64,000 nt of DNA from Candidatus Omnitrophota bacterium (GTDB lineage Bacteria > Omnitrophota > Gorgyraeia > Duberdicusellales > 4484-171). The position numbers and the translations under genes were made by a program. Shown piece after piece: positions 4,836-60,561 of the stretch (position 1 is the stretch's first letter; the number at the start of each line of letters is the position of its first letter). The notes under the pieces are model-generated. The model was given only the letters and a program-made list of their open reading frames with translations, was not told the DNA's origin and ran no database searches. The stretch is taken from assembly GCA_003154195.1 (NCBI GenBank), contig PMCS01000030.1, forward strand, positions 59,446 to 123,445, read 5' to 3'.

Positions 4836-4969
4836 CTTTGGCGGTATCCCGCTTCCCTGATATAAATATTCAAGGAAGGCGGTTATCAGGGTTGAATTCC
4901 CTGCAGCTTGTTGCGGGGAGGCTAAAGAGATATGCCCGATTATAAAAGCTATTTTAAAAGACCGGCCGT

Positions 4970-10980: not shown

Positions 10981-11079
10981 TTTATTTTTTGCTGCGCAAA
11001 AAATAAATATAAGCCGAAAAAATGTCCCCTACCGGACAAACGAGAGGTATTTTTCGGGTTGACAGAGTTAATCATCATT

Positions 11080-12295: not shown

Positions 12296-12345
12296 AAAAT
12301 CCGCCAGAATTTCCCGCTGCTTGCAGCGGGGATGAATGGCGTCTT
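12296..12345. repeat. Family-B hairpin unit (solo)
   Basis: gaatttCCCGCTGCttgCAGCGGGgatgaa keeps the same flanks and CTTG loop as 1054-1073, with a different but complementary stem. Confidence 0.5.
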
Positions 12346-14745: not shown

Positions 14746-14909
14746 ACGGTGACCGCTGCGCGGATAGAAAAATAGCAAGTTTCACCGCAAATGTTTTTTG
14801 GAGAAGGAATTAGTTTTCAAAGTATATCAATTTCCGATACGCCTACGGCGTATCGGCGGATAAATCTGCCTGCCGGAGCGCAGACAGATTTATGGAGGCA
14901 GGCAGATTT

Positions 14910-17770: not shown

Positions 17771-17945
17771 CTTCGCCGAATACCCGTGGCTTGCCACGGG
17801 GATGAAGGCGTAAGAAGAACTGCTGCGAAGCCACGAGCGAAGCGAGGGCGAAGCAGAGTTATGCGCGTATTCGGCTTCGAAGAAATGAAGCTGGATACCC
17901 TGCGGCTTGCCGCAGGGAGAACTTTGGTGCTTCATTTTTTGCGCA
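17771..17945. repeat. Family-B repeat (copy 2): two CTTG-loop hairpins around a variable core
   Basis: cttcgccgaataCCCGTGGcttgCCACGGGgatgaagg ... gaagctggataCCCTGCGGcttgCCGCAGGGagaactttggtgcttcattt. The right ~60 bp are ~90% identical to 1161-1215. Confidence 0.6.
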
Positions 17946-17967
17946 GCAAAAAAATAAAGGAAAATAT

Positions 17968-19964: not shown

Positions 19965-20125
19965 TTTTTAGGGTATCAGGGGATTAGGGTATCAGGATTT
20001 GGGAATTGGGAAATTGGGAGATTGGGGAAAATGCCGAAGAGGCGATAACCGATAACCAAATATCCCAATACCCTAATCTCCAAATCCTAATTTCCCGATA
20101 TCCCAATTTCCTTAATTTAAATGAG
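19965..20125. repeat. G-tract / C-tract pseudo-palindrome (~160 bp)
   Basis: The left arm is GGGtatcaGGGGattaGGGtatcaggatttGGGaattGGGaaattGGGagattGGGG. The right arm is its C-rich approximate complement, cccaataccctaatctccaaatcctaatttccc. Confidence 0.55.
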
Positions 20126-30769: not shown

Positions 30770-30852
30770 AAAGATAACCTGAGCTGGTTTTACCTAGGTT
30801 TTTCGTCCGCGAAGCGGACGGCGGTTATTTTTTTGCGAAGTAAAAAAATAAT

Positions 30853-31644: not shown

Positions 31645-32575
31645 TTCTTTCAAAATTTTCCCGGTAAATTTTGAAATAATTATTTTGCCCGATGAAATAT
31701 TTGAAAACGGGTGGCGGGATCAAAGAGTAAAAATTATACCTACGGGGAATGTTGCGCCGCCCGTTAAGCGGGACATCGGAGTAAGAGAGGCAAAGGGAGA
31801 GATAATTGCTTTTCTGGATGATGATACCTATCCGGCGCCGTGTTGGTTGGACGCCGCTTTAAAGTTGTTTGAAGGCAAAGATATCGCTTGCGTTTGCGGC
31901 CCGGCAGTCACGCCGGATGACGATTCCTTATTGCAGAAGGCAAGCGGCATCGTTTATGAGTCGTACCTGGTCAGCGGCGGCCATAATTTTCGCTATATTC
32001 CTAAGCCCGCCCGGTTTGTCGATGATTTTCCCAGTTGTAATTTTTTAATCCGGAGAGATATCTTTGAAAAAGTCGGCGGTTTTGACACGAAGTTTTGGCC
32101 GGGCGAAGATACTTTCCTTTGCCTTAAGGTTAAGCAAGCAGGAAAAAAAATGCTTTACCATCCCGCGGTTTTGGTCTATCACCATCGGCGCGGCCTTTTC
32201 GCCAAACATTTAAAACAGATCATCAACTACGGTTTACACCGGGGATATTTTGCCCGCAAATTTCCGGAAACTTCCCTGAGGATTACCTATTTTATCCCGT
32301 CGCTATTGCTTTTATGGTTGATTTCGGGTATTTTTTCCGGGCTTTCCGCGAAATTCGCGGCAATCTATTTTCTATCGGTATTATTTTATCTTGGCTGTGT
32401 GATGGCGGGGACGATTTTGGTTTTGGCGGGCAAAAAAGAAAAGATGGAAAATAAAATAAAATTGATTTTTTTAGTTTTTAGCGGAATAATCGCCACCCAT
32501 CTCGCTTATGGGATTTATTTTATCAAGGGGCTAATGGCTTCAAGCATGCCGGAGGAAACAGCAGATGATCGCTGA
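31580..32575 (+). CDS. GT2-family glycosyltransferase with C-terminal TM helices
   Basis: VSIIIAVKG...AFLDDDT (DxD) and hydrophobic C-terminal helices. The TGA stop lies inside the left TIR of the GxxExxY element remnant. Confidence 0.65.
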   Translation: MTVSIIIAVKGYCGNLKECVNNSFKIFPVNFEIIILPDEIFENGWRDQRVKIIPTGNVAPPVKRDIGVREAKGEIIAFLDDDTYPAPCWLDAALKLFEGKDIACVCGPAVTPDDDSLLQKASGIVYESYLVSGGHNFRYIPKPARFVDDFPSCNFLIRRDIFEKVGGFDTKFWPGEDTFLCLKVKQAGKKMLYHPAVLVYHHRRGLFAKHLKQIINYGLHRGYFARKFPETSLRITYFIPSLLLLWLISGIFSGLSAKFAAIYFLSVLFYLGCVMAGTILVLAGKKEKMENKIKLIFLVFSGIIATHLAYGIYFIKGLMASSMPEETADDR

Positions 32576-32790
32576 TTGGAAGATGCAGACGATCGCTGAG
32601 GATACGTATATTTATAGTGATTTAACCTATAGGTTTATTATTATGCCAAGGGCTCAAAATATAAATTGGTCTTATTAATTAATTTTGGTTCTCCTAAAGT
32701 TACCATAAAAAGATTAATATATACTAAAGGCGCAGGATGATATTTTATCTGTGATCATCTGCTTCTTCTAATCAGTGATCATCCGTGACT
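32561..32790 (+). mobile_element. Internally deleted (MITE-like) copy of the TIR-bounded GxxExxY element
   Basis: gcagatgatcgctga...tatagtgatttaacctata is the 5' ~70 bp of the element. It then jumps to ttatgccaagggctcaaaatataaattggtcttatt...tatctgtgatcatctgcttcttctaatcagtgatcatccgtgac, the 3' ~150 bp plus right TIR. Both parts are ~90% identical to 37678-38147. Confidence 0.7.
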
Positions 32791-34302: not shown

Positions 34303-34335
34303 ATTGCAGAGTACGAACTAAAGAATTGGAAGAAT

Positions 34336-34452
34336 GGTTAGGGTAAGGGTAAAGATGCCCGTATGGGCCAGGGTTAGGGTTAAGGCTGTGAATTCGTATC
34401 AGCCCTAACCGTTACCATAGCCCAAACCGGCTTCCTAACCCTAGCCTTAGCC
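34336..34452 (+). repeat. Telomere-like G-tract palindromic repeat (family A, copy 1)
   Basis: GGTTAGGGTAAGGGtaaagatgcccgtatGGGccaGGGTTAGGGTTAAGGctgtgaattcgtatcagCCCTAACCgttaccatagCCCaaaccggcttcCTAACCCTAgcc. The left arm is G-tract rich and the right arm is its C-rich partner. Confidence 0.7.
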
Positions 34453-34484
34453 ATTCTTCTAAACTTAATTATACTCAGGTAGCC

Positions 34485-35768
34485 ATGCGCATTAAACACA
34501 AAATACAATCTCTGCTCAAGGACAGTCTTTTCTTCGATATGGTCGTGATTTTGCTGGGCGCCGCCGGAGGAGGATTTCTAAACTTCATTTACCGTCTTGT
34601 CTGCATAAGGTTTCTGCCGGCGGCGGACTACGGCACCTTAAACGCGTTGATTGCGCTGGTGATGCTCGGCAGTGTGGGGTTGTCACCGCTGGGGACGACT
34701 TTTACGCGATTTTTTACCGAATACGCCGCGCGCAATGATTTCGCTTTATTGGTGCGCGCGTTTAAGGCAATCGCGAAAAAAATAGTTTTTAGCAGTCTGC
34801 TTATTTTTTTACTGTTTGCTGTCGCTTCGCCGTTGACGGCTAAATTTCTCAATACGCGTATTCTGTATGTGAATATTGCCGGCGTTTTGATCGCGGTGGC
34901 GGTTATCTCGCCCTTGTTTATGTCGGTATTACAGAGCTTACAGCGGTTTAAATTATTTTCCTCCGTCGGTATTGTTTCTGCATTTTTTAAGATTGTCGTC
35001 GGCGCTTTTTTGATGTGGCGGGGCTTTGGTGTTTTAGGGGGCATTTTAGGCTATTTTACCGCGTCGGCGGTGGCGCTGGTGATGCCGTTATATTTTATAC
35101 CCCGTATCTTCAGGCGTTTACGCGATGAGCATAAAAATTGCCCCGCCGGTGAATTAGACCCCAAGCCTTTTTACCGGTATTTTTTTCCGGTGTCGCTGGC
35201 GATGTTCGCCTTTTCTTCCTTTACCAATATCGACAGTATCATCGTTAAGCATTTTTTTTCTTCCGTGGATACAGGATATTATTCGATTGCCCAGAATATC
35301 GCCAGTATCGCTTTATTCTTACCGTCGGCATTGGCCATCGTAATTTTTCCCAAAAGCACAAAAGCGTTTGTTGAAGGGAGGGATTCCCCCCGTATTTTGC
35401 GTAAATCGCTGTTGTTGGCCGCGGCTTTTTGTTTTCTTTTTGTCGCCGGAGTTTTTATCGTTCCCAATACCGTCCTTATTCTTTTTACCGGAAAGACTAA
35501 CCCGGCCAGCGCCGGCTTGCTTGGGCTTCTGTCGGCAGCGCTGAGTTTCTACGCGCTCACGTGGATAATGATAAATTTCCTCCTGGCGGTGCACAACCTG
35601 GATTTTATCGTTCCCTTTGCTGTTTTGGCGGGGCTGGAAGCGATTTGTGTTTATAATTGTCACCAAAGCCTGATGATGGTAGGATATACGGTAACTATTT
35701 TTGCCGTCCTTGCTTTTACGATGTTGCTTTGGTCGGCGCGGAATAAAGTCCATATTAGACAGGGTTAA
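34485..35768 (+). CDS. Polysaccharide biosynthesis / Wzx-like flippase (MOP superfamily)
   Basis: About 12 TM helices, ~425 aa, and a glycan-cluster context. Confidence 0.55.
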   Translation: MRIKHKIQSLLKDSLFFDMVVILLGAAGGGFLNFIYRLVCIRFLPAADYGTLNALIALVMLGSVGLSPLGTTFTRFFTEYAARNDFALLVRAFKAIAKKIVFSSLLIFLLFAVASPLTAKFLNTRILYVNIAGVLIAVAVISPLFMSVLQSLQRFKLFSSVGIVSAFFKIVVGAFLMWRGFGVLGGILGYFTASAVALVMPLYFIPRIFRRLRDEHKNCPAGELDPKPFYRYFFPVSLAMFAFSSFTNIDSIIVKHFFSSVDTGYYSIAQNIASIALFLPSALAIVIFPKSTKAFVEGRDSPRILRKSLLLAAAFCFLFVAGVFIVPNTVLILFTGKTNPASAGLLGLLSAALSFYALTWIMINFLLAVHNLDFIVPFAVLAGLEAICVYNCHQSLMMVGYTVTIFAVLAFTMLLWSARNKVHIRQG

Positions 35769-35773
35769 GGCTA

Positions 35774-35870
35774 AGGCTAGGCTCTCCTTCGCTCTTCGAG
35801 CTTCGGAGAAGTCTCGCCGAAGTTCTCCTTCGCTCTTCGAGCTTCGGAGAAATCTCGCCGAAGGCCTTGG
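35774..35870 (+). repeat. Tandem duplication of a 43-bp unit (family G) fused to family-A copy 2
   Basis: ctccttcgctcttcgagcttcggagaaRtctcgccgaag occurs twice, then gccttggcgaaggcggactttagcgaaggcggaaagccggtttggg. The reverse complement recurs at 38955-39050. Confidence 0.6.
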
Positions 35871-35930
35871 CGAAGGCGGACTTTAGCGAAGGCGGAAAGC
35901 CGGTTTGGGTTAAAAAACTTGGTTAGGGTA

Positions 35931-36085
35931 AGGGTAAAGATGCCCGTATGGGCCATGGTTATGGTTAAGGCTGTAAATTCGTATTAGCCCTAACCGTTAC
36001 CATAGCCCAAACCGGCTTCATAACCTTAACCCTAGCCGATTAACTACCGGCATCGTTGCCTTTACCCTAACCATGTCATAACCTT
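35931..36085 (+). repeat. Family-A repeat (copy 2)
   Basis: ggttagggtaagggtaaagatgcccgtatgggccatggttatggttaaggctgtaaattcgtattagccctaaccgttaccatagcccaaaccggcttcataaccttaaccctagcc, ~90% identical to copy 1, with an extra ctttaccctaacc arm. Confidence 0.7.
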
Positions 36086-36095
36086 AATAAATATT

Positions 36096-37034
36096 ATGTA
36101 TTTCTACGGACCGGTTCCTTCCCGCAGGCTCGGGTTTTCTTTAGGGGTCGATTTAATACCCAAAAAGGTATGTTCTTTCGATTGCGTCTATTGCCATGTC
36201 GCTCGGACTACCCAAAAAACCGCCGGACAATTTTCTTATGTTAAGTTACCGCAGTTTACGAAAGAACTTAAGGCGACCATAGCAAAGAAGCCCCAGCTTG
36301 ATTATATAACCATCTCCGGTTCCGGCGAGCCGACCTTGCACAAAAACCTCGATAAAATAATCGGCATCATCAAGCAAACAACCAAAAACAGATATCCGGT
36401 TTGCGTAATCACTAACTCTTCGCTTTTATACCGTAAGTCCGTGCGTCGAGCTTTGCGCCGCGCCGACTTGATTATTCCTTCGCTCGATGCCGCTACCCCG
36501 CGGGTTTTTGAAAAAATTAACCGGCCGCTTAAGGGGATAACCATCGATAAAATAATCAACGGCCTTATCCGGTTGAGAAAAGAATTCAAGGGTAAAATCT
36601 GGTTGGAAATAATGGTGGTGCGCGGCATTAACGATACACTTGACGAAGCGTTTCGGCTGCGAGAGGCTGTTGCTAAAATAAAACCCGATAAAGTCCAACT
36701 GAATATACCGGTGCGGCCGGCCTGGGCAGATATAGCCCTACCCGATAAAGAGCGCGTCCGGGAAATAGCGAAAATCATCGGCGGCAATATCGAAATTATC
36801 GCCCGATTTAACAAGAAACCGAGAAAGCAATCCGGCGGCGACGCCGCGAATGTAATCATCGAATTTTTGAAACGCCGTCCGGCAAACCTAAGCGATTTGG
36901 AAAAGACGCTGGGCATCAGCCGTCTTCGGTTGAACCGCTCTCTACGCGATCTAATATCGCGCGGGAAGATAAAAGAGAAAATGGCGCATGGCGAAAAATA
37001 TTTTATTTTTTGCGGCGCAAAAAATAAAATATGA
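36096..37034 (+). CDS. Radical SAM domain protein (small, non-B12)
   Basis: The N-terminal CSFDCVYCHV is a CX3CX2C motif 25 aa from the start. Confidence 0.65.
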   Translation: MYFYGPVPSRRLGFSLGVDLIPKKVCSFDCVYCHVARTTQKTAGQFSYVKLPQFTKELKATIAKKPQLDYITISGSGEPTLHKNLDKIIGIIKQTTKNRYPVCVITNSSLLYRKSVRRALRRADLIIPSLDAATPRVFEKINRPLKGITIDKIINGLIRLRKEFKGKIWLEIMVVRGINDTLDEAFRLREAVAKIKPDKVQLNIPVRPAWADIALPDKERVREIAKIIGGNIEIIARFNKKPRKQSGGDAANVIIEFLKRRPANLSDLEKTLGISRLRLNRSLRDLISRGKIKEKMAHGEKYFIFCGAKNKI

Positions 37035-37684
37035 TTAAAGAGAATATCGAAAAGATTTTGAAGGAATTGCCGCCGGGGGTGGAGCTGGCCGCGGCGGTCA
37101 AAGGGCGTAGTATTGCCGAAGTAAAAGAAGCGGCGGCGGCGGGGGTGACGATTTTGGCCGACAATTATCTCCAGGAAGCCGCCGAAAAAATCGAAGCTTT
37201 AGGAAGGGTTGCCCGGTGGCATTTTATCGGCCATTTACAAAAAAATAAAGTCCAAAAAGCGGCGGCGCTCTTCGATATGCTGGAGACTATTGATTCTTTT
37301 GAACTCGCTCAGGTTTTGGATAAAGAATGCGGCAGGCTGGGCAAGGTAATGCCGGTATTGCTTGAGGTAAACTCCGCGGACGAACCGCAGAAAGCGGGAT
37401 TAGAACCGGCCGAGGTGGAAAGTTTTGTCGGCCGGGCCGGCTCGTTGGCGCATCTGAAGATATCCGGGCTGATGACGATGGGGCCGCTGGTGGATAATCC
37501 GGAAGCGATTAGGCCGTTTTTCCGGAAAGTGAAGGAAATTTTTGATTTGATAAAGAGCAAAGCGTATGATAATTTAGATTGGAGATATTTATCGATGGGC
37601 ATGAGCGATACTTACAAGATCGCGATTGAAGAGGGGGCTAATATCGTTCGCATTGGAACAGCTATTTTCGGTATACGCAGATGA
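37031..37684 (+). CDS. yggS: YggS-family pyridoxal-phosphate homeostasis protein (PLPHP)
   Basis: LAAAVKGRSIAEVKEAAAAGVTILADNYLQEA...HFIGHLQKNKV. The stop codon lies within the left TIR of the downstream element. Confidence 0.85.
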   Translation: MIKENIEKILKELPPGVELAAAVKGRSIAEVKEAAAAGVTILADNYLQEAAEKIEALGRVARWHFIGHLQKNKVQKAAALFDMLETIDSFELAQVLDKECGRLGKVMPVLLEVNSADEPQKAGLEPAEVESFVGRAGSLAHLKISGLMTMGPLVDNPEAIRPFFRKVKEIFDLIKSKAYDNLDWRYLSMGMSDTYKIAIEEGANIVRIGTAIFGIRR

Positions 37685-38147
37685 TCACAGATGAGAAGAT
37701 GCAGATGATCGCTGATGATACGTATATTTATAGTGATTTAACCTATAAAATTATCGGGGCGGCTTACGATGTCCATAAGGAACTGGGTTCCGTCCATAAA
37801 GAAATTGTCTACCACAGAGCGTTGGCTATTGAATTCGGTAACAGGAACATCCCTTTTGTCGAAGAAAAGCCGATTGATGTAAAATTTAAAGAAAACAAAA
37901 TAGGAACATACAGGCCAGATTTTATTGTAGACGACAAAGTCGTGGTGGAGATAAAAGCCGTTCCTGCTATAGCCAAAGCAATGTATGATAAGGTTTATTA
38001 TTATGCCAAGGGCTCAAAATATAAATTGGTCTTATTGATTAATTTTGGTTCTCCTAAAGTTACTATAAAAAGATTAATATATACTAAGGATGCGGGATGA
38101 TATTTTATCTGCGATCATCAGCATCTTTTAATCAGCGATCATCTGCA
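37678..38147 (+). mobile_element. TIR-bounded mini-element carrying one GxxExxY-family (PD-(D/E)xK nuclease-like) gene
   Basis: Left end gcagatgatcacagatgagaagatgcagatgatcgctgatgatacg. Right end tatctgcgatcatcagcatcttttaatcagcgatcatctgcac. The reverse complement of the right end aligns to the left end, giving ~43-bp imperfect TIRs. The element sits exactly between the yggS stop and the MBL gene ATG. Confidence 0.65.
37681..38100 (+). CDS. GxxExxY-family protein (predicted PD-(D/E)xK nuclease fold)
   Basis: IIGAAYDVHKELGSVHKEIVYHRAL...PDFIVDDKVVVEIKAV. The E-x-K with preceding D matches PD-(D/E)xK. A homolog at 53759-54076 carries GCGFLEYVYQEAL. Confidence 0.7.
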   Translation: MITDEKMQMIADDTYIYSDLTYKIIGAAYDVHKELGSVHKEIVYHRALAIEFGNRNIPFVEEKPIDVKFKENKIGTYRPDFIVDDKVVVEIKAVPAIAKAMYDKVYYYAKGSKYKLVLLINFGSPKVTIKRLIYTKDAG

Positions 38148-38149: not shown

Positions 38150-38857
38150 ATGCGACTAAAAATTCTATTTGAAAAAGAAAAAATCGACGAAAGATTCTCC
38201 GGCGGATGGGGATTGTCTTATCTGGTGGGGGAGAATGTCCTTTTTGATACCGGCGAGAAGTTCGAATTTCTGGAAAACAACGCCCGGTTGATGAACGTTG
38301 ATTTAAACAAAATCAATAAAGTCGTGATTTCTCATACCCATTGGGACCATGTTTCTGGTTTGTGGGAGCTCTTAAAGCGTAACCGGGGGATTACGGTATA
38401 TGGCTGTCCGCGTTTCGAGGAAGATTTTAAGAATAAAGTGACCGCCGCTTGCAGCCGGTTTGTGGAAGTAAAAGAGATGGTGGAATTGGAAAAAGGGGTC
38501 TATGCTTCCGGCGAGATGATGGCTAATTATAAGGGTGAAGTAGTGGCGGAGCACGCTATGGCCCTCGATTCAGGGAACAATATCGCGATTCTTTGCGGTT
38601 GCTGTCATCCGGGAGTGCTGAACATGCTGCAGAAGATTACCGGTTTTTTCGGCCGGCATGTTGATATGCTCATCGGCGGTTTGCACCTGATGGATAAGGA
38701 GAAGAGATTTACCGAATATATTATCCAGGAAATGCCGGTTCGGGTCAAAAAAGCCGCGCCGGGGCATTGCACCGGCAGTGAAGCCGCCGCTCGCCTGAGA
38801 GCTATTTATAAGGAAAATTTCATCGAGCTGAAAGCGGGGATGGAGCTTGAGATATAA
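38150..38857 (+). CDS. MBL-fold metallo-hydrolase
   Basis: HTHWDHVSGL (HxHxDH zinc motif) and later H/D ligands. Confidence 0.6.
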   Translation: MRLKILFEKEKIDERFSGGWGLSYLVGENVLFDTGEKFEFLENNARLMNVDLNKINKVVISHTHWDHVSGLWELLKRNRGITVYGCPRFEEDFKNKVTAACSRFVEVKEMVELEKGVYASGEMMANYKGEVVAEHAMALDSGNNIAILCGCCHPGVLNMLQKITGFFGRHVDMLIGGLHLMDKEKRFTEYIIQEMPVRVKKAAPGHCTGSEAAARLRAIYKENFIELKAGMELEI

Positions 38858-39060
38858 AATCGGTTAAGGCTAGGGTAAAGAAGCCGGTTTGGGCTATGGC
38901 AATGGTTAGGGCTGATACGAATTTACAGCCGTTACCTTAACCTTGCCCCATACCGGCATTCCGCCTCCGCTAAAGTCCGCCTTCGCCAAGGCCTTCGGCG
39001 AGACTTCTCCGAAGCTCTAAGGGCGAAGGAGAGCGTAATCTTCGCCATAGCCGTTTTTAA
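38858..39060 (-). repeat. Family-A (copy 3) plus family-G composite repeat, inverted orientation
   Basis: The reverse complement of 38858-38950 aligns to 35960-36037. The reverse complement of 38955-39050 aligns to 35780-35900. Confidence 0.65.
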
Positions 39061-39077
39061 CTAAGGGTATTTATTAT

Positions 39078-40010: not shown

Positions 40011-40193
40011 TGGGCAGATGCGGAGAGCCATATTGTGTATTTTTATACAGCCGAAAAGCAAACGGAGTTTACGCGGGCTTGCGCGTAAAACTTTATATAG
40101 GTATAAATATATTAACTTAACAACAATAATGTTTTTCTAATGGCAATTTATTTTCGCGGGAACCGCGAAGATAAATCAGGAGGGTTCAAACCC

Positions 40194-43100
40194 ATGCTTA
40201 ACCTACTTAACCACAAAAAAGTCAACGGTTTAACTAAAGTCTTAATTTCTACCCTGGCGTTTTTATTTTTCTTTTCCAGCCTGGGTATCTCGCGTGCCTT
40301 GCCGCAAGCTGGGCCCGGCGCCATTATGGCGAGCCTGCCGGTTCCGGGGCAGATGGTAAATATTACCCCGCCGTTCACTCCGGTGTTGATTAAAGGCCTT
40401 AAGCTCGACGTCAATGACCCGTTTAAATTCAACTTTATTGTCGAGCCGGGCGACAGCCGATTGAAAGACGCTCAATTAAAAGAAGAAATCTCCGATTTAG
40501 TGCGCTACTTCTTAACCGCCTTAACCGTTCCCGAATCTGACCTTTGGGTCAACCTTTCGCCGTTTGAGAACAGCCGTGTTATCACCGATGAATTGTCGTC
40601 GACCGATTTAGGCCGCGATTTGTTGGCTTCCGATTACATTCTCAAGCAATTAGTTTCTTCCCTGACCTATCCGGAATCGCCTTTAGGCAAAAAATTCTGG
40701 GATAAAGTATACAAGCGCGCCGGCGAATTATACGGCACCACCAAAATCCCGGTCAATACGTTTAATAAAATCTGGATTATGCCCGAATCGGCTTCGATTT
40801 ACGAGAACGGCAACCAGGTGATTATCTCCGATATTAAACTCAAAGTGATGCTGGAAGCGGATTATCTGGCGATGAAGAATACCAAGGGGCAGGGGGCAGG
40901 AGTCAAGGGCCAAAGCGAAAATACAAAAAAGGATATCAATGATTTAAGCGGGCAGATCATGAAGGAAGTGATCCTGCCGGTCATCGAGCAGGAAGTCAAC
41001 CAGGGAAAGAATTTTGCCAAAGTGCGTCAGATCACCTATTCGATTATCCTGGCCAGCTGGTTTAAACTGAAACTCAAAGACAGCCTGGTGGCTAAAGCCT
41101 ATGCCAATAAAAAGACGATGAAGGGCGTCGATACCAGCGACCCGGCGTTACGCGAACGCATTTATCAGCAATATGTCTCCGCCTATAAAAAGGGCGTCTA
41201 TGACTATATCAAAAAAGAATTCGAAGGTAATTCTTCGCGCCAGGTAAGGCGCAGGTATTATTCCGGCGGGTATACCATCAGTAATGCTGTAGAGTTGGTC
41301 AGCGGCGGGGTGGAGGTCACCACCCCCCAGTTTGCTCAAGCCGCGGCTCGTAAAGAAACAGTAATCGCCACGGCTTTAGTAAACGAGGGGGGCGTCACCG
41401 CTTCGCCGGTTGGAATCATGTCGTCCCCGTTGGCTAGAGTCACTGAACTAAAAGGTAAGATAATTCCTTCTCTTGAAAGGGATCTTGCGGCAAAAATGGC
41501 TGTGCATCGAAAACAACAGGCGAATATCAAGGACGAACATCAGCGACAGGTGGGCATATATGCGAGAACTTGGGCTACGCAGGCACTTCTCAAATATGAC
41601 ACTGAAATCAGTAAGAGAGCCAACTACGATGGTGACAGGGTAGCCGCCGCTTGGGCAGATCTACAACAGGCTAAAGCTGCGTGGAATGTAGAAAAAGAAC
41701 TTGATCAACGTCGTTTGGAACTAGCGAGCCTAGAACTAGAAATAAGAATAAAAAAAAGAGGGTCTTCGGCGGTAGCCGCTTCGCCGGTAACACCTGTGGA
41801 GGATGGATTTACCTCGGCAATAGCCGGTTTTTACGCTATGGCGGGCCAAGCTAAACCTGATTGGCGAACGATGCGAGCTGAAGTTGAAGGAAAATATAAT
41901 ACGCTCAAGGCAGAATTAGATAGAGCCCACGAGGAAGCCGACAGACAATATAAGGAAAGGATGACTCAGAACAATGAATTACTTCAAGCATGGTCTGACT
42001 TGGAAGAGGCTGTAGGAAAAGTAGCGAAAGAATTAAGGCAAGTAGAAACAGAAATGGCAAATGTTGCTGGCCAGGAAGGTAGTCAAGATAAAGTATCTGC
42101 TTTGCGACAGCGATTAGATGAAATAAAGGCAAGATATTCATCGATTCTTGCTAAAAAAGACGAAGCTGATGCCCGTATGGTAGCAGATTTCAATGAAAGA
42201 GTGAACCCCTTAAGACTTTCCTTGGAGACTATCGAAATCAAACTCCTTGCTGCTGAATTAGAGTTTAGGATGGTTATGGCGGGATATCCTAACGTTGGAA
42301 TTATGAATGGTATTATCCAGGAATATGAGACAGGAGCAAGAACGCATTCGACTTTGGCAGACTATAGAGAGATGATTGGTCACGAATCGATTACTGAAGA
42401 GATGCTTAAACCTTTGGCGGAAGCGATAGAAAGAGCCAAGGCACGCGTTGCTGATCTTAAGGCTAAAGAAGGTAAGGCTTCGGATGCGGCTCAAGAAGCG
42501 CCGACCGCGCCGACCGCGCCGGCCGCGCCGGCCGCGCCGACCCACGAAGCTGAGTCAACGGCCAGAGCTTTAGAGACCCCGGAGGTAACGCCAACGCAAG
42601 TCACTATGCAGTCGACGGAAATGTTGGCTGCAGCGGTTAATGATTTGGCAGACCAACATCGGGTGCGCTCTGAAGCAATGGTAAGGGCGCAGGCAAAACG
42701 TGAGACGCTGAAAACAGAGCTTGAGGCGGCGAGGCAGGCGGCCGATTCAGCTCTCGGCCAATCAGACTATGATACGCTTCGAGAAGCCTGGGCGCAAAAA
42801 AGCAGAGAATGGGATGAATTTATCACGCAGACATTTAACCCTCAAGTTGATCCATATAATGCCGGTTTAGCCCGGTTGCAAGCGGCCAGGATAGCGGCTG
42901 ATGTGGTGGCGTATAGAGGCGAAGGCCGGAGCATCGGGGATACTGATGTTAAGATGTGGCAGGCCCTGGGCGATAAGATTAGGGCGACAATTGAGTACTT
43001 AGAAGATACGGGAGAACGGTTCGCGGAGCCGCACAATAATGCCCCGACGGTTGAGCAGCTCAAGAATCTTGACGCGGAATTGGCATTAGCTAAAAGTCAT

Positions 43101-46100
43101 CTTAGCGTGGCGTACTATGCGCAAGGGTTAACGGAAACGCCGGCTTTTTTAAACGAGCTTTCCCAGGCCAGCGCGGAAAATCAAGATAGAGCGATTAAAG
43201 AAATTGTTAAGATTGCCCAAGGTAAAGGAAAAGTCTTGGCGGAAATAATCAGGCTCATTAATAGAACATCCGGTCTGCCGGAAAACCTTCGGCCGGTTAC
43301 CACTAAGCTTCTTGCCGCGATACATAAAGAACCGGGTTCGACGAAGGATTTGCTCGGGCGTCCCAGGGCGCCTAAGATCCGGGCCGCCGTGATTGATGCG
43401 CTCGATAAAATTCCCGGAAGCGACAGTGATGCAGCGCTTGAGCTTATTGGGGTTGGGCCTGGGGGTGAAGCCGTGCCTGGGGGTGAAGCCGCGATGGATG
43501 TTTTAGCGACACGAAAACAGTTAGGGGGTAGAATCGGCAGTGGAGAGCCGGAAAGAGGGGATAGCGGTATGCGGAGACTTTTAGAAGAATTCCCCCCTGA
43601 TCCGGATAAGCCGACACCATCAGACTCGGCTAAGGACGCAGCGGCCAAGCTTGCCGCCGCGGCTAAAGCTGGTGACGCCAGTGCGGCGACAGCCGCGGTG
43701 CTGGATGCATCCATGGGAGTGGACCGCGTAGCTCAAGCCAGCAAGACCGGAACCGACTCGGAGCGTATTACCGCTCTTGATCTTCTTTTTTCGATTGCTA
43801 CTACCGGCCAGGGGTCGCGCCGCGCCCGCTGGGCGATTACTGATGCCGCGGTTAACGCCGATAGTTCAGCTGCCGTGCGGATTGCCGCGCTTAAATATCT
43901 TGGCGCGCTCAACAATCACGCCGCGCTTCCGGCGCTTAACCATGTAATTAACGATATCGCTGGTAGGTCTCAGGCGGATAGGGATAAAGCCGGCCTTGCT
44001 GCGGTCAGCGAGGCGGCGCGCCAGGCTATCAAAGATATCAATGAAACCAATGCCAAGCCCAATGCGCTTGTCAGATTAACCAACGCTTTTAAGGCAATTT
44101 ACTATAGGTTGATAACCAATAGCGCCCAAAGCGCGCCTGCGGGTGCATCTACGACTACGTCAACTGCCAAGGGCGGTGGTAATGTCGTCGGCGGGGGAAA
44201 TGACGATGCTGCCGCTAAAGCTCTTGCTCAAGCAAAAGAAGCCGCGGCTCAAGCCCTTACTGAAGCAAAGGCAAAAGTCGAACCCGTTACTGCTGATTTG
44301 AGAGATAAACAACATCAAGCCGAAATCGAAGCTACAATTGCGGCACGTACGCAAAGAGAGTTTGTGGAATTGGGTAAACAACGGGCCGCCAAAGAAAAAG
44401 AATTGGCCGATGCCCAGGCGGCAAAAACTGCCGCCGACCAGGCTGTTGCCACTCTTGAGGCGCCGCCGGTTAAAGTGCCGGGGAAAAGAGCGCCCTCGGC
44501 TGCTAAGAGGAAAAAAGACCTTGCCCAAGCCAGGAAAAATGCCGGGTACGCCACGGCTGAAGTCGAGAATCGTACGCGGGGATTGAATGATTTGGTATCG
44601 CTTGCGGTGAATCCGGCTGAAGCCAGGGCTGCAGCGGCTAAGACTGCGGCTGATGAGGCCGCGAAGCTTGCGGCAGAGGCCGAAACACAGGCAAAAGCGG
44701 CGCAAACCGCAGTTGACGAGGCGCAAGCTAAGGTGGAGCAATTGAATGCGCCGCCTAGCCAGTCCACCGGAACGGCGGCCGGCAATAAGCCGAATTTAGC
44801 TGTCGACGCCGCCAAGAAATTAGCCGATATCCCGCCGGATGAGCCTGTGTCGGTAGAGGAGAGTTTAGCTGAAGCCGCCGCCCGGATATTGGGCCACGGC
44901 GCTTCCGAAATAATCAATAGTGATCCGGAGGTAGCTGCCGTCCGGCTTTTAGATATTTTAAAAGACCCTGATCAATCTGCCGACCGCATCTCTGTTTTGA
45001 GATTGCTGGGGGAGATAGCCATGACTGAAATAATTGCTAAATATCGGCCGCAAGAAGCTGTGCCTGCGTCGGAAGGAGGGCCGGCCGTGTCGTCCGCGGT
45101 AAAAGTGATGAACGTCGAGTTGTCTTCTCATGTTGGGGCTATTTTGAATGCTATACTTGCTACTTTTAGGCAGGAAGGGGATGCCGGTATCCGTATCGCC
45201 GCGCTTGAGCAATTAGTCGAGTTAGGTTTATCTTTCCCCCCTGAAAGTGGGGGACGGGTTCCGATAATAAATGCAATCCAGTCAGTTGCCAAGAGCGGGA
45301 AAGGAGAAGATAAAGCAGTAATAAAAGCCGCTAAACAGGCTTTGATCGATATGGGGGTTCGTAGCAAATTGGGAAGGATAGGGCTACTTGCGGGGTTGGC
45401 GGTGGCGGTGGCTTTTGGCGGCTACGCGTTGCAACATGCCATGCAGGCTCCCGTCCCCGGCCTTGTTCCGGGCGTCGGCCATCTACCCGGAGGCCCCGAC
45501 GGAGGCCTCGATGTCGGACATCACGGCGCAAATCTGCCCCAGTTGATTATGCCTTCCCAAATGCCCCCGGATGATTATAAGTGGAGCCTGGAGCAGAACA
45601 GCGCGGGAAAATTGTTTTGGGTTGCCGTACCCGATTATTCTAAGCATCCCGATATTATGACCAGAGACCAAATTAATACACTTTATAATCCTCCGCCCGG
45701 TTTTTATCGGGACGGGAGTGATGCAGGCAGGTTGAATGCTTGGCTGGTGCCGATGTTTCCTATACCGGTACAGTCTACAGCGCCGGCCGGAACCGATACC
45801 GGTGTTCAAACTGCTACCGGCGTCATGGCCATCGATGCCGCAGTCCAGAAAGTCGCCGTTTCCGCGGCTCGTGAGGCGTTAGCCAATAGAGATACCGGCA
45901 AATCCGCGCTGGATTCCCAAGCGGTAACGCCCGACGCCGGAAAAAGCGACAAAACTGCCGTCGATGGCGGTACTACAGTAGATGTTCCCGGAGCGTATAC
46001 TACTACTCCGGTGGAAAAGGAAAAGATTCCCGCGACATCCCCTCCGGCTGATAATGGGAGCAATCCGACCGGAACAGGAGCAGCAGCAACCACAGGCGAT

Positions 46101-47315
46101 GCGGGAAAGACTGTGACTCAAGCTCCCGCGGCAACAGGCAACGCGAATGTTAAAAAACAAGCAGGAAAAAACGACGATAAAGTAATGAAAAAACTCCACG
46201 ATGAAGAAATGGCCAAACGAGCGAATGCGAAATTACTTTTGGAAACGGCCATCCATGACTATCTGTTGGATCATGGAATGCCCACGGATGATGGAGCAAT
46301 CCAGAAAATAAGGGCAGACAATAAGCTTGAGGGCGATCACAAAATCCCATTTCACAATCCGTACTATATTCGTATTAATGGAACATCAGTTAAGGTACCC
46401 GGAGCAGATTCATTACCTCTATCTCTGGCCACGAAAGCCCCGGCGGCGAAAGCTGCGAGACTTAGTTTTGACCAAGCGATAGAGGGGGATTTGGCTTCCC
46501 CCTCCGGCCCCACCCATGTTGATCGCGGCGTTCGTAAGGCTACTGAAAAGGTTAAAAATGATATAGCCAGCATCAATGGCTACAAGCGGACTCCTGACGG
46601 CCTTTTGACAGATGATGGTAAGCCGGTTCCGCCGGGGAAAAAGCTATTAATGGTACCGCCTTCACTGGGTGACCCTTATTATGAGTCAGCGCTTAAGGAT
46701 TTCCAGGCAAAGGCATACGCTTATCTGCAGCAACATCCTGACGCTTCGATGGACGAAGCGATAGATTATGTCGACCGTACCACCCCGCCTTATCAGGAGA
46801 CTAAGTGGGCATACGCTGGTTCAGAACAGGGGGGTAAAGAAGGACGTAGAGTTCCGCTTGGTAAGCCGGTAACTTTTAGGGATTTAGTAGAGCACAATGG
46901 TATTGTTTGGGATGGCCCGTCGGATAACAACGCCCCCTCCGGTACCGCGACTGGTGATAGCGGTACTCCCGGGGTTGGGCACGGTAACACGCCGGGTGAT
47001 GCGACCGGCATTGGTGGGGGAGTAAAGGCGAAGGTACTAGATTTTCTTCACGAGGCGGGGTTCGGCCGCCAGCTTCCGACAACGCAACAGGTTTTTACTG
47101 GACTTAAGGGAATGAGCAGCAGTTCGCCGGACACTAAAGGCGGTATCGATATGAACACCGCCAAGACGGCGATGAATATCAAAGGCGACGGGAAATTCGC
47201 TTTTGCTTCCTCGGCGCTTAAGGCCGACGGCCAGTCTTGGAAGGGGATTACGTTTACCATCGTGAAGGTAGAAAGGATCACTAACCCCGCGTTATTTTTC
47301 GCCGCGTCGCGATAG
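40194..47315 (+). CDS. Giant secreted/membrane protein 1 (2373 aa). It has a signal peptide, a conserved ~330-aa N-terminal domain of unknown function, coiled-coil and HEAT/PBS-lyase-like repeat regions, one internal TM helix, a Thr/Pro/Gly-rich region and a conserved ~55-aa C-terminal module.
   Basis: AGGAGG RBS 9 nt before the ATG at 40194. Signal peptide KVLISTLAFLFFFSSLGIS. The N-domain is ~80% identical to that of the 47582 gene. HEAT-like repeats include VRIAALKYLGALNNHAALPALNHV and IRIAALEQLVELG. The TM helix is RIGLLAGLAVAVAFGGYAL. The C-terminal module is IDMNTAKTAMNIKGDGKFAFASSALKADGQSWKGITFTIVKVERITNPALFFAASR. Confidence 0.8.
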   Translation: MLNLLNHKKVNGLTKVLISTLAFLFFFSSLGISRALPQAGPGAIMASLPVPGQMVNITPPFTPVLIKGLKLDVNDPFKFNFIVEPGDSRLKDAQLKEEISDLVRYFLTALTVPESDLWVNLSPFENSRVITDELSSTDLGRDLLASDYILKQLVSSLTYPESPLGKKFWDKVYKRAGELYGTTKIPVNTFNKIWIMPESASIYENGNQVIISDIKLKVMLEADYLAMKNTKGQGAGVKGQSENTKKDINDLSGQIMKEVILPVIEQEVNQGKNFAKVRQITYSIILASWFKLKLKDSLVAKAYANKKTMKGVDTSDPALRERIYQQYVSAYKKGVYDYIKKEFEGNSSRQVRRRYYSGGYTISNAVELVSGGVEVTTPQFAQAAARKETVIATALVNEGGVTASPVGIMSSPLARVTELKGKIIPSLERDLAAKMAVHRKQQANIKDEHQRQVGIYARTWATQALLKYDTEISKRANYDGDRVAAAWADLQQAKAAWNVEKELDQRRLELASLELEIRIKKRGSSAVAASPVTPVEDGFTSAIAGFYAMAGQAKPDWRTMRAEVEGKYNTLKAELDRAHEEADRQYKERMTQNNELLQAWSDLEEAVGKVAKELRQVETEMANVAGQEGSQDKVSALRQRLDEIKARYSSILAKKDEADARMVADFNERVNPLRLSLETIEIKLLAAELEFRMVMAGYPNVGIMNGIIQEYETGARTHSTLADYREMIGHESITEEMLKPLAEAIERAKARVADLKAKEGKASDAAQEAPTAPTAPAAPAAPTHEAESTARALETPEVTPTQVTMQSTEMLAAAVNDLADQHRVRSEAMVRAQAKRETLKTELEAARQAADSALGQSDYDTLREAWAQKSREWDEFITQTFNPQVDPYNAGLARLQAARIAADVVAYRGEGRSIGDTDVKMWQALGDKIRATIEYLEDTGERFAEPHNNAPTVEQLKNLDAELALAKSHLSVAYYAQGLTETPAFLNELSQASAENQDRAIKEIVKIAQGKGKVLAEIIRLINRTSGLPENLRPVTTKLLAAIHKEPGSTKDLLGRPRAPKIRAAVIDALDKIPGSDSDAALELIGVGPGGEAVPGGEAAMDVLATRKQLGGRIGSGEPERGDSGMRRLLEEFPPDPDKPTPSDSAKDAAAKLAAAAKAGDASAATAAVLDASMGVDRVAQASKTGTDSERITALDLLFSIATTGQGSRRARWAITDAAVNADSSAAVRIAALKYLGALNNHAALPALNHVINDIAGRSQADRDKAGLAAVSEAARQAIKDINETNAKPNALVRLTNAFKAIYYRLITNSAQSAPAGASTTTSTAKGGGNVVGGGNDDAAAKALAQAKEAAAQALTEAKAKVEPVTADLRDKQHQAEIEATIAARTQREFVELGKQRAAKEKELADAQAAKTAADQAVATLEAPPVKVPGKRAPSAAKRKKDLAQARKNAGYATAEVENRTRGLNDLVSLAVNPAEARAAAAKTAADEAAKLAAEAETQAKAAQTAVDEAQAKVEQLNAPPSQSTGTAAGNKPNLAVDAAKKLADIPPDEPVSVEESLAEAAARILGHGASEIINSDPEVAAVRLLDILKDPDQSADRISVLRLLGEIAMTEIIAKYRPQEAVPASEGGPAVSSAVKVMNVELSSHVGAILNAILATFRQEGDAGIRIAALEQLVELGLSFPPESGGRVPIINAIQSVAKSGKGEDKAVIKAAKQALIDMGVRSKLGRIGLLAGLAVAVAFGGYALQHAMQAPVPGLVPGVGHLPGGPDGGLDVGHHGANLPQLIMPSQMPPDDYKWSLEQNSAGKLFWVAVPDYSKHPDIMTRDQINTLYNPPPGFYRDGSDAGRLNAWLVPMFPIPVQSTAPAGTDTGVQTATGVMAIDAAVQKVAVSAAREALANRDTGKSALDSQAVTPDAGKSDKTAVDGGTTVDVPGAYTTTPVEKEKIPATSPPADNGSNPTGTGAAATTGDAGKTVTQAPAATGNANVKKQAGKNDDKVMKKLHDEEMAKRANAKLLLETAIHDYLLDHGMPTDDGAIQKIRADNKLEGDHKIPFHNPYYIRINGTSVKVPGADSLPLSLATKAPAAKAARLSFDQAIEGDLASPSGPTHVDRGVRKATEKVKNDIASINGYKRTPDGLLTDDGKPVPPGKKLLMVPPSLGDPYYESALKDFQAKAYAYLQQHPDASMDEAIDYVDRTTPPYQETKWAYAGSEQGGKEGRRVPLGKPVTFRDLVEHNGIVWDGPSDNNAPSGTATGDSGTPGVGHGNTPGDATGIGGGVKAKVLDFLHEAGFGRQLPTTQQVFTGLKGMSSSSPDTKGGIDMNTAKTAMNIKGDGKFAFASSALKADGQSWKGITFTIVKVERITNPALFFAASR
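42498..42542 (+). repeat. In-frame 9-bp tandem repeat (x5) encoding APTAPTAPAAPAAPT within giant gene 1
   Basis: gcgccgacc gcgccgacc gcgccggcc gcgccggcc gcgccgacc. Confidence 0.8.
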
Positions 47316-47581: not shown

Positions 47582-50500
47582 ATGCTTACTTTTAATCCAA
47601 AAAAATCAAATGCCGGTAAAGTTTTTTCGTCTTTTATGGCGTTTGTTTTTTTCTTTACCAGCTTAGGCACGGGTAAGGCCTTTTCGGATAACGGGCAATT
47701 AAGCCTTGCGTCTCTGCCTTTACCGGGCCAGATGGTCAATCTCACTCCGGTGTTTACTCCCGCCCTGCTCAAAGGCCTGAAACTTGACGCGAACAATCCG
47801 TTAAGATTCAATTTCATCGTCGAACCGGGCGATACGAAATTCGGCGAAGCGAAACTAAAAGAAGAAGTCTCCGATATGGTCCGCTATTTCCTGGCCGCGC
47901 TGACCATACCCGAATCTGACCTCTGGGTAAACCTTTCTCCGTTCGAAGGCGGCAGGGTAATCACCGATGAATTGTCGTCAACCGATCTGGGCCGCGACAT
48001 GCTGGCTTCCGATTATTTATTGAAACAATTAGTCTCTTCCCTGACCTATCCCGAATCAGCCTTAGGCAAAAAATTCTGGGAAAAAGTGTACAGAAGAGCC
48101 AATGAAGTTTATGGGACGGCTAAGATACCGGTCAACACTTTTAACAAAATATGGATTATGCCGGAGTCGGCATCGATTTTTGAGAACGGGGATAAAGTGG
48201 TAATCTCCGATATCAAACTGAAGGTGATGCTGGAAGCTGATTATTTTGCTATGCAAAATAATCAGGCCAAAGACCAAAAAACTGGAAAACCGAAAAACGA
48301 AAAAACTTTTACCACGGGTAATCAATCTGACGGTAAAGCGGTTAATGATTTATCCGGGCAGATCATGAAAGAAATCATCCTGCCGGTCATCGAGCAGGAA
48401 GTAAACCACGGCCAGAGTTTTGCCAAATTGCGCCAGATCATCTACTCCGTCATTCTGGCCGGTTGGTTTAAATTAAAATTAAAAGACAGTATTGTCAACC
48501 AGACTTACAGCGATAAAAAGAAGATGAAGGGCGTAGATACTTCTGACCCGGCGTTAAAAGAAAAGATATATCAACAATACGTGCAGGCTTATAAGAAAGG
48601 CGTCTATGATTATATCAAGAAAGAATTCGAGGCTAATTCCCATAGACAAGTCCGGCGCCGTTATTTCTCCGGCGGCGTAGAGCTTCTCTACGGGAAGCTT
48701 GTCGGTGATACCCAGCGAGTTCCCCCTGAAGCGTTTGCCGGAAAATTAAGCAGTCCGCTCGAAGCCGAGGCGGCCACGGTTGAGTTAGCGCCGGCTTCGC
48801 TGCCTAATAGTTTCCTGGGCGAGGTGCCTCCGGGCTATGTCAGCCCATGGGTTGACCGGAAAGGTAAAGATGGCCCAATCGATCAGCATTTGCCTACATT
48901 GGCTCAATACGATAATGTCCTAATCGCTATAACGACGGGGCCTGAGGCCGTAGAGGAGATTGTCACGAGAGAAGGCCCGCTTGCGGCGCCCAATTTTGTC
49001 AGGGCGCTCGAGGATAATGCTATGGGAGAATTTAGGAAAGAAATTATTAACGTTCTTGGTAGAATAGGAGATGCGAGCGCAATTGGCAATATCGTCAGGT
49101 TCGGCATTGATTACATTGGTAGAAAAACCCCGGCTGGAGAAGTGCGCGCAGTGCATTTAGCCGCAATCGAGGCGATTAAGAATATAGGTATGCGCTATAT
49201 TTGGAATATTGATCATGCTTTTTGGATGCTTAGCCTTGCGGTGGAGGGAATAGGGGACGCGGAGCTTCACGCAAAAGCGATTGACGCTCTCAGGGAAATG
49301 GCGGCCTTGATGGTTAAGACTAACCCGATAGATGATGAAAAAGCCGTATACGCTTCCAGGCTCGCTTATTACAGGCAATTTTTCCAGAGGCTTCTGAGCA
49401 TGGCTAGGACTAAACCTAATAAAAGAGGTGTAGTCGATTATGGAGTTGTAGACAAGGATGTCCGTATCGTCGCTATTTCTGCTCTCGCGCCTGTAACTGC
49501 AGCCGCTAAAGATAATAGATTTGTTTCTGATCCCGAATATGATGGCTTTCTTTCGGGTGTTCGTTCGGAACTTACGGGTGTGGCTACTGATGAAAAAGAC
49601 AATCCGGAGGTGCGCGCCGCCGCAGTTCGTGCTCTTGGGGTGATGGCTGCTAATAAGCGGTTCCCGATCATGATTTATCATACACTTGAAGATATGTTTA
49701 CAAGAGACAGTCCGGATATGCCGGATATTGTTAGGGCTGCTCTTCGCGAGGTTCTTCCGGCGGTAAGCAAAGACGCCGGTACTGTCGCGGCTTCTCCGGT
49801 TACCGCCCTGAAGCCCGCGGCCGCGGATGAGGCCAGGCCGGGAGAGACAGGGCGAAAGCGGGGAGATGTTTTAAGAGCACTTAGGGCTTCTGAAAGAGAC
49901 CTGGCAACTTTAGAAGCCGCCTTAGAAGCTAAAAGTTGGGCATATCAATTATATACGGCGGGCTTTGATGAAGCCGCCGCAGGAGAGTTAACCGACGCTG
50001 TCAGGGTTAAGAAGCTTCCGCTTACAGGCAGGTATCGGCCCACTGATGATGGGGTCATGTTGATTGTTCATGCCGAGATTGGGGCGATTTCACGCACCGA
50101 AACGGAGCGTCTTGGTAGTTTAGAAAGACAAAGAGAAATCAGGGAGCTTGATGATAAGGTTAAAGCTAAAAGAGCGCAGGTTATTGAGCTCGGATGGGCG
50201 GCGCGTGAGCTTGAGGCAGCTCAGCAGGAGCGCCATGCTGTCGCCCTGAGAAGATTAGAAGAATTAAAGGCTAAATTTCAAAAGGCGGTGTCTGGTTTTA
50301 CAAGCGCTTTAGAAGAAGCTCAAGGGAATGGCCCAGAGGCTGTTGCTGCCGCCAGGGGTGATCTTGATAAGTTGTTGGGAGAAATCCAACTCGCCGGCGA
50401 CGCGATTACGCAAGCGTTGGCTCGTTATAGAGAAGAGGGGATCGATCTTGGCGATGAGGCTCTGGTTGCCGGGACGCGTACTATCGGGGGAAAACCGGCA

Positions 50501-60394: not shown

Positions 60395-60408
60395 GGAGAA
60401 AAGCGTTA

Positions 60409-60529: not shown

Positions 60530-60561
60530 ATTTTACATTATATCTCTACTCTATATAAGAT

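Follow-up and report, generated by a model that had tools for sequence, protein, structure and literature searches.

A family of phased-hexamer palindromes, probably a non-autonomous mobile element, in the intergenic regions of a Candidatus Omnitrophota genome

The stretch of DNA analyzed in this work (hereinafter, the window) comprises 64,000 nucleotides of contig PMCS01000030.1 (positions 59,446 to 123,445) from the assembly GCA_003154195.1 of a Candidatus Omnitrophota bacterium; all the copy counts, repeat calls, and chance expectations reported below refer to this 64-kb window. It harbors an imperfect palindrome of about 120 nt, referred to as family A, represented by four full copies (c1 to c4, each element being 120–135 bp long) and three arm fragments. 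Two of the full copies (c1 and c2) lie in one orientation and two (c3 and c4) in the inverted one, and each of them is intergenic, between co-directional genes that are all encoded on the + strand. A 20-nt core pattern, searched with up to three mismatches, was found at exactly four sites of the window, corresponding to c1–c4, against an expectation of 0.00 in shuffled sequences. An nhmmer model of the arm recognized each uninterrupted arm with E-values of 1e-13 to 1e-14, its only further matches in the window being the three fragments (35762–35780, 35897–35912, and 36045–36072), and a repeat finder gave an identity of 93% between c1 and c2, with c3 and c4 85–92% complementary to them. These three approaches confirm what an initial annotation, made from the sequence alone, had described as a repeat of about 120 bp occurring in four copies and two orientations; its statement that the copies are intergenic within co-directional gene arrays also holds.

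Copy c1 (34329–34459, + strand) is complete and consists of a G-rich arm (34336–34385), a loop (34386–34402), and a C-rich arm (34403–34452), with a 7-nt palindromic extension (GAAGAAT/ATTCTTC) beyond the arms, whose nhmmer E-values are 3.7e-13 and 6.6e-14. It is preceded by a gene for a B12-binding radical SAM protein, ending at 34302, and followed by a gene for a Wzx-type flippase, starting at 34485. Copy c2 (35913–36044, + strand), also complete, is composed of the terminus AAAAACTT, the G arm (35921–35970), the C arm (35988–36037), and the terminus GATTAAC; together with a second repeat, family G, it occupies the space that separates the flippase gene from a second radical SAM gene. Copy c3 is split into two parts, both on the - strand: the first (38858–38959) contains the G arm (38862–38911), the loop, and the inner C arm (38930–38959), and the outer remainder of the arm (CGTAATCTTCGCCATAGCC, followed by the terminus GTTTTTAAC) lies at 39034–39061. 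This copy, with its own family G unit, has a metallo-beta-lactamase (MBL)-fold gene upstream and a small gene downstream. Finally, the complete copy c4 (60405–60536, - strand), with the terminus GTTAATC, arms at 60412–60461 and 60480–60529, and the terminus ATTTTAC, is embedded between pdxJ, which ends at 60394, and acpS, which starts at 60562. Two of the ranges initially assigned had to be revised: the one given for c2 (35931–36085) does correspond to a real copy, but it merges the full copy (arms 35921–36037) with a separate remnant (36045–36076), and c3 does not end at 38950, since its arm resumes at 39034–39061 past a 74-nt inverted family G unit.

In some cases, the element coincides with the end of a gene. 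The MBL-fold gene ends with a stop codon (38855–38857) that immediately precedes c3, the stop codon TAA of the flippase gene (35766–35768) falls within an A-arm fragment (GGGT-TAA-GG), and in two of the related metagenome loci discussed below (L040 and L041) the stop codon of the upstream gene is the TAA at the element boundary. The family A element, or its target site, may supply stop codons to the adjacent genes.

The alignment of 16 arms revealed that each arm, about 50 nt long, is built of eight phased hexamers GG-Y-W-A-R (consensus GGTTAG), with a core of 12–14 nt (GAWGCC-N-GTWTGG) among them; three hexamers come before the core, and four further ones lead from it to the loop. The period of six is strict: across the 16 arms, phase 1 is G in 97% and phase 2 in 88% of the cases, A is invariant at phase 5, phase 3 is occupied by T or C, and phases 4 and 6 are variable; no more than two perfect hexamer units ever follow one another. 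The core of each arm forms a small palindrome of its own (GCCC-GTAT-GGGC and AGCC-GGTTTG-GGCT), and the two arms of the window copies are 11–17 nt apart.

When folded as RNA, c1, c2, and c4 form a long imperfect hairpin with minimum free energies of -50.9 to -64.5 kcal/mol and z-scores of -4.2 to -8.1 (c1, -61.8 kcal/mol and z -5.8; c2, -64.5 kcal/mol and z -8.0; c4, -50.9/-51.4 kcal/mol), and the interrupted c3 reaches about -34 kcal/mol. The folding of the G-rich arm with a complementary C-rich arm into a long hairpin, as initially proposed, is therefore well founded. The corresponding DNA hairpins are far weaker (-19 to -29 kcal/mol), the DNA fold of c4 not being significant. The two strands of c1, c2, and c4 differ by just 0.1–2.9 kcal/mol, and this similar folding makes it less likely that selection acted on an RNA from one strand. 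In the ten copies of the long type (see below), standard pairs occupy 93% of the cells and six pairs are altered on both sides, with a covariation score of 0.155 versus 0.116 in shuffles, none of the 500 shuffles reaching the observed value; this represents modest evidence that the complementarity of the arms is maintained.

No conserved open reading frame (ORF) was found in family A, the six frames being closed or short. A peptide translated from the G-arm frame MVRVRVKMPVWA... (VRVRVK..., 23 aa) was considered and rejected, the frame lacking a start codon in L040, L041, and L060; its existence can be explained on the basis of the hexamer phasing. None of the window copies qualifies as an intrinsic terminator (a G+C-rich stem followed by a T-run), and promoter-like matches beside these copies are at chance level. 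At the Rfam gathering score, the window and 20 metagenome loci yielded only a group I intron and tRNAs, with no match to family A, and below the threshold only generic hairpin (miRNA-precursor) matches of up to 25 bits were obtained. The group I intron (62593–62906, RF00028, 86.8 bits) is located between tRNA-Thr (61936–62008) and tRNA-Gly (63183–63256) and overlaps an ORF without Pfam match (62049–62753), ARAGORN disclosing no tRNA gene around it. A different hairpin with A/T-runs (TTATTTTTTGC-NNN-GCAAAAAATAA) occurs five times at or near gene ends (10976–11007, 14715–14746, 17926–17957, 30820–30851, and 36997–37028); these hairpins may act as terminators in both directions or constitute one more repeat family.

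The region around c2 shows a nested organization, in which pieces of an older, inverted A copy bracket the full one. Upstream of c2, on the + strand, the outer fragment of the older arm (35762–35781, GGGTTAAGGCTAAGGCTAGG, with a weak nhmmer match at 35762–35780) is followed by a family G element lying within this arm (35782–35896) and then by the inner fragment of the same arm (35897–35912, AAGCCGGTTTGGGTTA), which ends at the TA where c2 starts. Downstream of c2, a 32-nt remnant of the outer C arm (36045–36076, + strand, TACCGGCATCGTTGCCTTTACCCTAACC...; nhmmer 36072–36045, E = 2e-4) is complementary to the outer G arm at 35917–35948. The same layout, that is, a full copy followed after about 7 nt by an outer arm starting with TACCGGC, is also shared by L041, L049, L056, and L060; it would fit a history in which an element entered an older arm at its TA and the two copies then recombined.

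Family G is a repeat in its own right and occurs a third time near 1074–1140. In the element upstream of c2, a unit of 41 nt is tandemly duplicated (2.0 copies, 97%, Tandem Repeats Finder, 35783–35863), and in the arm of c3 a single inverted unit of 74 nt is present (38960–39033, - strand). The fusion of c2 and c3 to a second, tandemly duplicated repeat, already recognized in the initial annotation, is real, the unit being corrected from 43 bp at 35774–35870 to 41 nt at the above coordinates. Both copies associated with family A lie directly 5′ of the A(A/T)GCC core of the arm, at matching positions. The c2-side and c3 copies of family G are about 94% identical and their outer A flanks about 68% (13/19 positions, counted by eye), and this difference suggests that two separate insertions of family G might have occurred at the same position of the A arm. 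Another repeat of the window is a REP-like (repetitive extragenic palindromic) G+C-rich palindrome of 29 nt (..CCCTGCGGCTTGCCGCAGGGA), with five intergenic copies (1045–1073, 1165–1193, 4891–4919, 12304–12332, and 17890–17918), which is joined to other modules at 1040–1215 (including the family G-like copy at about 1074–1140) and at 17873–17937.

The gene order of the window (radical SAM, Ala_racemase_N, MBL-fold, small lipoprotein-like gene ... tilS, ftsH, folP, cdaA, pdxJ ... acpS, nnrD) is shared with two syntenic Omnitrophota loci, L069 and L071, whose PdxJ sequences are 65–67% identical to that of the window and which contain no family A arm. The spacer between the MBL-fold gene and the small gene is 220 nt long in the window, where it is occupied by c3 and family G, versus 20 nt or a 4-nt overlap in L071 and L069; the orthology of the genes was confirmed by identities of 41% and 31%. 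Since the relatives have a spacer of 20 nt or overlapping genes at this site, the comparison of the three loci shows that c3 is inserted relative to its syntenic relatives, an event that occurred in the lineage of the window. The metagenome loci that were fetched contained no orthologous empty sites. Outside the species, the nearest PdxJ shares 69% identity. Near-identical strains were retrieved from several peat/wetland metagenomes and from the NCBI assembly GCA_003154645.1, and all of them carry family A copies; in other samples, the contigs of this strain are interrupted at c1 and c2, as is usual for assemblies at repeats.

The comparison with L069 and L071 disclosed other differences. At the pdxJ–acpS locus, L069 contains other short intergenic repeats, (CAAGCTA/CAGG)-like and (GTTTACA)4 (10700–10740 and 11240–11275), and an extra gene for a small secreted protein, which has no counterpart in the window, where the site is occupied by c4. 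In the window, a gene of the PD-(D/E)XK_3 nuclease family (37681–38100), enclosed by 40-nt inverted repeats (37677–38146), separates two genes that are adjacent in both relatives and looks like a small mobile cassette; a gene-less derivative of 223 nt with the same ends is located at 32561–32783.

Related copies were searched for in metagenomes using the C-arm core pattern, which itself makes the core look invariant, and 34 loci were retrieved. Those of the long type are full palindromes on contigs with a G+C content of 43–46%, placed, like the window itself, in Candidatus Omnitrophota by PdxJ and a glucanotransferase; their apical stem and loop are unlike those of the window, yet self-complementary, and the long type as a whole comprises 3 forward and 7 inverted copies. 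In the short type, the arms of the palindromes measure about 37 nt and the loops 20–30 nt, and variants include solo arms and copies with about 140 nt between the arms (L038, L046, L048, and L061). The arms are conserved, and the center is variable in all these forms (11 nt in the window, 20–30 nt in the short type, and about 140 nt in the variants). The contigs with short-type copies and solo arms range from 37% to 56% G+C, and on one solo-arm contig there is a gene for a deoxyhypusine synthase that shares 78% identity with a Syntrophaceae protein, suggesting, on the basis of this one protein, that the motif is not confined to Omnitrophota.

In the window and the 34 loci, almost all the copies are intergenic, in both orientations, mostly between co-directional genes located 6–50 nt away, and the neighbors are ordinary genes such as tig/clpP, nadE, and malQ. 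Several short-type relatives are followed by T-runs and are terminator-like. In six short-type loci (L035, L043, L045, L054, L064, and L068) a conserved block, TGCCCCATGNCCGGAGGGCANCCTCGAACCATGAAAAT, is located directly 5′ of the G arm; it can be read as a ribosome-binding site with an ATG, from which an ORF of 6–8 codons (MKIIAG*) extends to the first GGT-TAG hexamer, and this micro-ORF is conserved in 4–9 short-type loci and absent beside the window copies. The search for CCRTARCCCAAACCGGCTTC in a genome collection gave 27 matches, of which the three inspected are coding and consistent with an EAGLGYG-type peptide motif; the others are single matches, mostly in bins of Comamonadaceae or other Burkholderiales, and were taken as chance. 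The loop pattern had no match in the metagenome collection without the source samples, viral contigs yielded no matches, and a full-text search of the literature returned nothing relevant on such repeats in Omnitrophota or Syntrophus, or on the motif itself.

The search for a mobilizing enzyme covered 45 of the 46 non-overlapping window ORFs with a length of 100 aa or more (an ORF of 2391 aa being left out) and 40 ORFs flanking the metagenome copies. The ORFs bracketed by arms in L050, L056, and L064 were considered as candidates for an autonomous element and rejected, as they encode an MBL-fold protein, a 4-alpha-glucanotransferase, and an oxidoreductase. The ORF of 2391 aa (40140–47315) and a neighboring one of 1500 aa (47582–52084), which has no Pfam match, share paralogous segments with 75–88% DNA identity; at this site, the relatives pass almost directly from the small gene following the MBL-fold gene to a radical SAM gene on the minus strand.

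The copies of family A are repeated, intergenic, present in both orientations, non-coding, able to form hairpins on both strands, and mosaic or nested. The whole body of data makes it probable that family A represents an interspersed mobile palindrome, non-coding and non-autonomous, which belongs to the MITE (miniature inverted-repeat transposable element)/REP kind and whose form comes closest to that of the ERIC and Correia elements. Its features are those of MITEs: it is shorter than about 400 bp, has neither a transposase of its own nor a conserved ORF, has inverted repeats around a variable core, and is dispersed in mainly intergenic copies; moreover, a filled and an empty site can be compared at c3, with distant relatives (PdxJ 65–67% identical). 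The initial annotation had kept an ordinary MITE as its fallback, which is close to this picture. The 50-nt arms act as long terminal inverted repeats, and the copies would have been inserted into the short A/T-rich spacers of co-directional genes, often against a TAA stop codon. A transposase whose gene lies elsewhere, and which is probably no longer close by or has lost its activity, might have driven the spread, the putative target being TA or TTAA. Family G would have been acquired later at a fixed position of the arm, with nested and rearranged copies accumulating. Being located inside operons, the copies are presumably transcribed in either orientation, as an imperfect RNA hairpin of about 50 bp that could affect mRNA processing or stability.

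The likeness to known elements concerns form. ERIC sequences are about 127 bp long and are classed as MITEs; they have TA at both termini and no ORF, and they can alter the fate of mRNA (PMC3184786). Family A resembles them in size, in the imperfect palindrome extending over the whole length, in the presumably transcribed intergenic location, and in the occurrence in either orientation; it differs in having no sequence similarity, in belonging to another phylum, and in its arms of phased GGYWAR hexamers. The Correia elements of Neisseria are MITEs of 104–157 bp with 26-bp inverted repeats and a core containing an IHF site and promoters (PMC3184786). Like these, family A is small, bounded by inverted repeats, and presumably co-transcribed, has many copies that abut genes, and exists in mosaic and variant forms; unlike them, its arms fill nearly the whole element and no promoter-like signal exceeds chance.

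Some observations weigh against the interpretation of family A as a mobile element. No filled-versus-empty polymorphism was found among the near-identical strains. The TA, often within TTAA, that is present at both ends of 8 of the 10 long-type copies may belong to the palindrome itself. No transposase, RAYT (REP-associated tyrosine transposase), or IS200/IS605 TnpA was detected among the scanned ORFs of the window and of the metagenome flanks, nor was an autonomous element with matching ends seen. The copies differ by 7–15%, so the family may be old and inactive. Lastly, a simple selfish spread does not account for the strictness with which the hexamers are phased (phases 1, 2, and 5 being invariably G, G, and A) or for the core common across lineages.

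A related possibility, which appears rather unlikely, is that family A represents a REPIN-type element, i.e., that the two arms are REP-like units arranged as an inverted doublet, which a RAYT, encoded by a single-copy gene in another part of the genome, would mobilize in the form of single-stranded hairpin DNA (for the REPIN concept, see PMC3116915). As in REP, BIME, and REPIN sequences, the copies form hairpins, are extragenic, often clustered, and form mosaics with other motifs; they have no clear target duplication and no transposase nearby, the arm cores are small palindromes (a likeness in form only), and the 29-nt REP-like palindromes constitute a separate family in the same genome. In addition, the presence of family G at one arm position recalls the insertion sequence (IS) elements inserting into REPs (PMC3116915 and PMC3184786). 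However, most REPs carry GTAG or CGTC as a tag (PMC3733652), and neither tetranucleotide is present in the arm consensus; the arms are units of 50 nt versus 20–40 nt; no RAYT was found in the scanned window ORFs or in the fetched loci; and a center whose length varies up to 140 nt is more easily reconciled with inverted repeats flanking a core than with a doublet of fixed form. A further comparison can be drawn with the boxC/TMECO repeats of E. coli (CCCTC...GGGAGAGGGTTAGGGTGAGGGG), which are intergenic, contain GGGTTAGGG, and pair a C-rich with a G-rich stretch (PMC4666352); they are, unlike family A, units of 34–37 nt discussed as intrastrand triplex formers (PMC4666352), with no homology to it and another architecture.

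It is improbable that the element is instead an RNA hairpin selected by the host, i.e., an operon stem controlling mRNA decay, RNase III/RNase E processing, or the expression of the flanking genes. The copies do lie inside operons, directly past stop codons, their RNA fold (-51 to -65 kcal/mol) is very strong and far more stable than the DNA fold (-19 to -29 kcal/mol), some compensatory changes are present, and T-runs follow several short-type relatives; such secondary effects are known for ERIC and Correia (PMC3184786). On the other side, both orientations are comparable (3 forward versus 7 inverted copies in the long type), the strands fold about equally, no window copy has a stem-plus-T-run terminator pattern, and the orthologous operons of the relatives lack the element. 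Moreover, any effect of this kind would be compatible with, and secondary to, an origin as a mobile element.

Much less credit can be given to the idea that family A is a G-quadruplex/i-motif regulatory switch or a telomere-like element, which is very improbable. The initial annotation had read the arms as TTAGGG-type repeats with at least four GGG tracts in a canonical quadruplex pattern, facing an i-motif-capable partner, and some features do recall such structures: the GGTTAG consensus of the hexamers, the five G3 tracts each on the + strand of c1 and on the - strand of c2, and the G4Hunter maximum of c4 (1.28). Nevertheless, none of the eight copy strands matches a motif of four tracts of at least three Gs with loops of 1–7 nt (canonical) or 1–12 nt (extended), the G tracts being split by the 15-nt core. 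Copy strands other than those two have only 1–4 G3 tracts, and the G4Hunter maxima range from 0.84 to 1.28, only c4 exceeding 1.2. The tracts are not conserved among copies, GGG being replaced by TGG or AGG with the third G variable, and only the GG at hexamer phases 1–2 is invariant across the family members. Folding with the G-quadruplex option of ViennaRNA never chose a quadruplex in the minimum-energy structure, either for the full copies or for the isolated 56-nt G arm, and the complementary arm, just 11–17 nt off, offers a competing hairpin of -51 to -65 kcal/mol in the uninterrupted copies. The motif scan, G4Hunter, the G4-aware folding, and the unconserved tracts do not support the quadruplex/i-motif reading.

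As for the likeness to the eukaryotic telomere (TTAGGG)n, GGTTAG corresponds to that unit read in another register, and this part of the initial description stands; the tandem array does not, as Tandem Repeats Finder reported no TTAGGG-type array within any family A copy. Family A differs from telomeric DNA in having at most two consecutive perfect units and in being palindromic, intergenic, and internal, its copies lying between genes and not at the end of a replicon. The telomere-like look of the arms is due to the GGTTAG-type hexamers, with neither a telomere nor a quadruplex function. The sole canonical quadruplex motif of the window is located elsewhere (20001–20027, GGGAATTGGGAAATTGGGAGATTGGGG), in a single-copy palindrome of about 140 nt (19971–20105) that has the design of family A and a different sequence. 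This palindrome, formed by a G-tract arm with a period of 7–8 nt and a complementary C-tract arm (RNA -59.7 kcal/mol, z -4.4), sits between a glycosyltransferase gene and a methyltransferase gene.

The VCR repeats of Vibrio, integron attC sites, are imperfect palindromes of roughly 120 nt between co-oriented ORFs, with the core sites RYYYAAC at the 5′ and GTTRRRY at the 3′ end. That family A might consist of attC-like recombination sites separating cassettes, as its similar size, imperfect palindromy, tight co-directional ORF spacing, and ends (GTTAGGG and CCCTAAC, a 6/7 match to the attC core sites) could suggest, was rejected as having hardly any chance of being true on the basis of the core-site orientation, which is reversed (GTTAGG 5′ and CCTAAC 3′ on both strands), and of the gene context, the flanks being syntenic housekeeping genes (pdxJ/acpS and tig/clpP) and not cassettes, with no integrase among the scanned window ORFs.

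Going beyond the window, one might speculate, with rather little confidence, that family A belongs to an undescribed superfamily of phased-hexamer (GGYWAR)n palindromes, with a core of about 20 nt common to Omnitrophota and Syntrophaceae-like (Desulfobacterota) bacteria from peat and sediment. If this were true, the invariant G, G, and A positions might represent repeated binding sites for a transposase or a host protein, the sharing across phyla would imply horizontal transfer between physically associated organisms, and family G would be a second element targeting one position of the A arm.

Among the bacterial intergenic repeats, family A adds a new family to a kind that is well known. Small interspersed repeats are apparently undescribed for Omnitrophota, an uncultivated phylum known mainly from metagenome bins, and the presence of this family has practical consequences: it breaks assemblies, several contigs of the same strain ending at c1 or c2, and it mimics quadruplex and telomere motifs in motif scans. 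Such repeats can also supply stop codons, as in the case of the flippase gene. In other respects, they are intergenic DNA of an ordinary, selfish or neutral class; a family shared by Omnitrophota and Syntrophaceae-like bacteria could mark gene flow in peat and sediment consortia.

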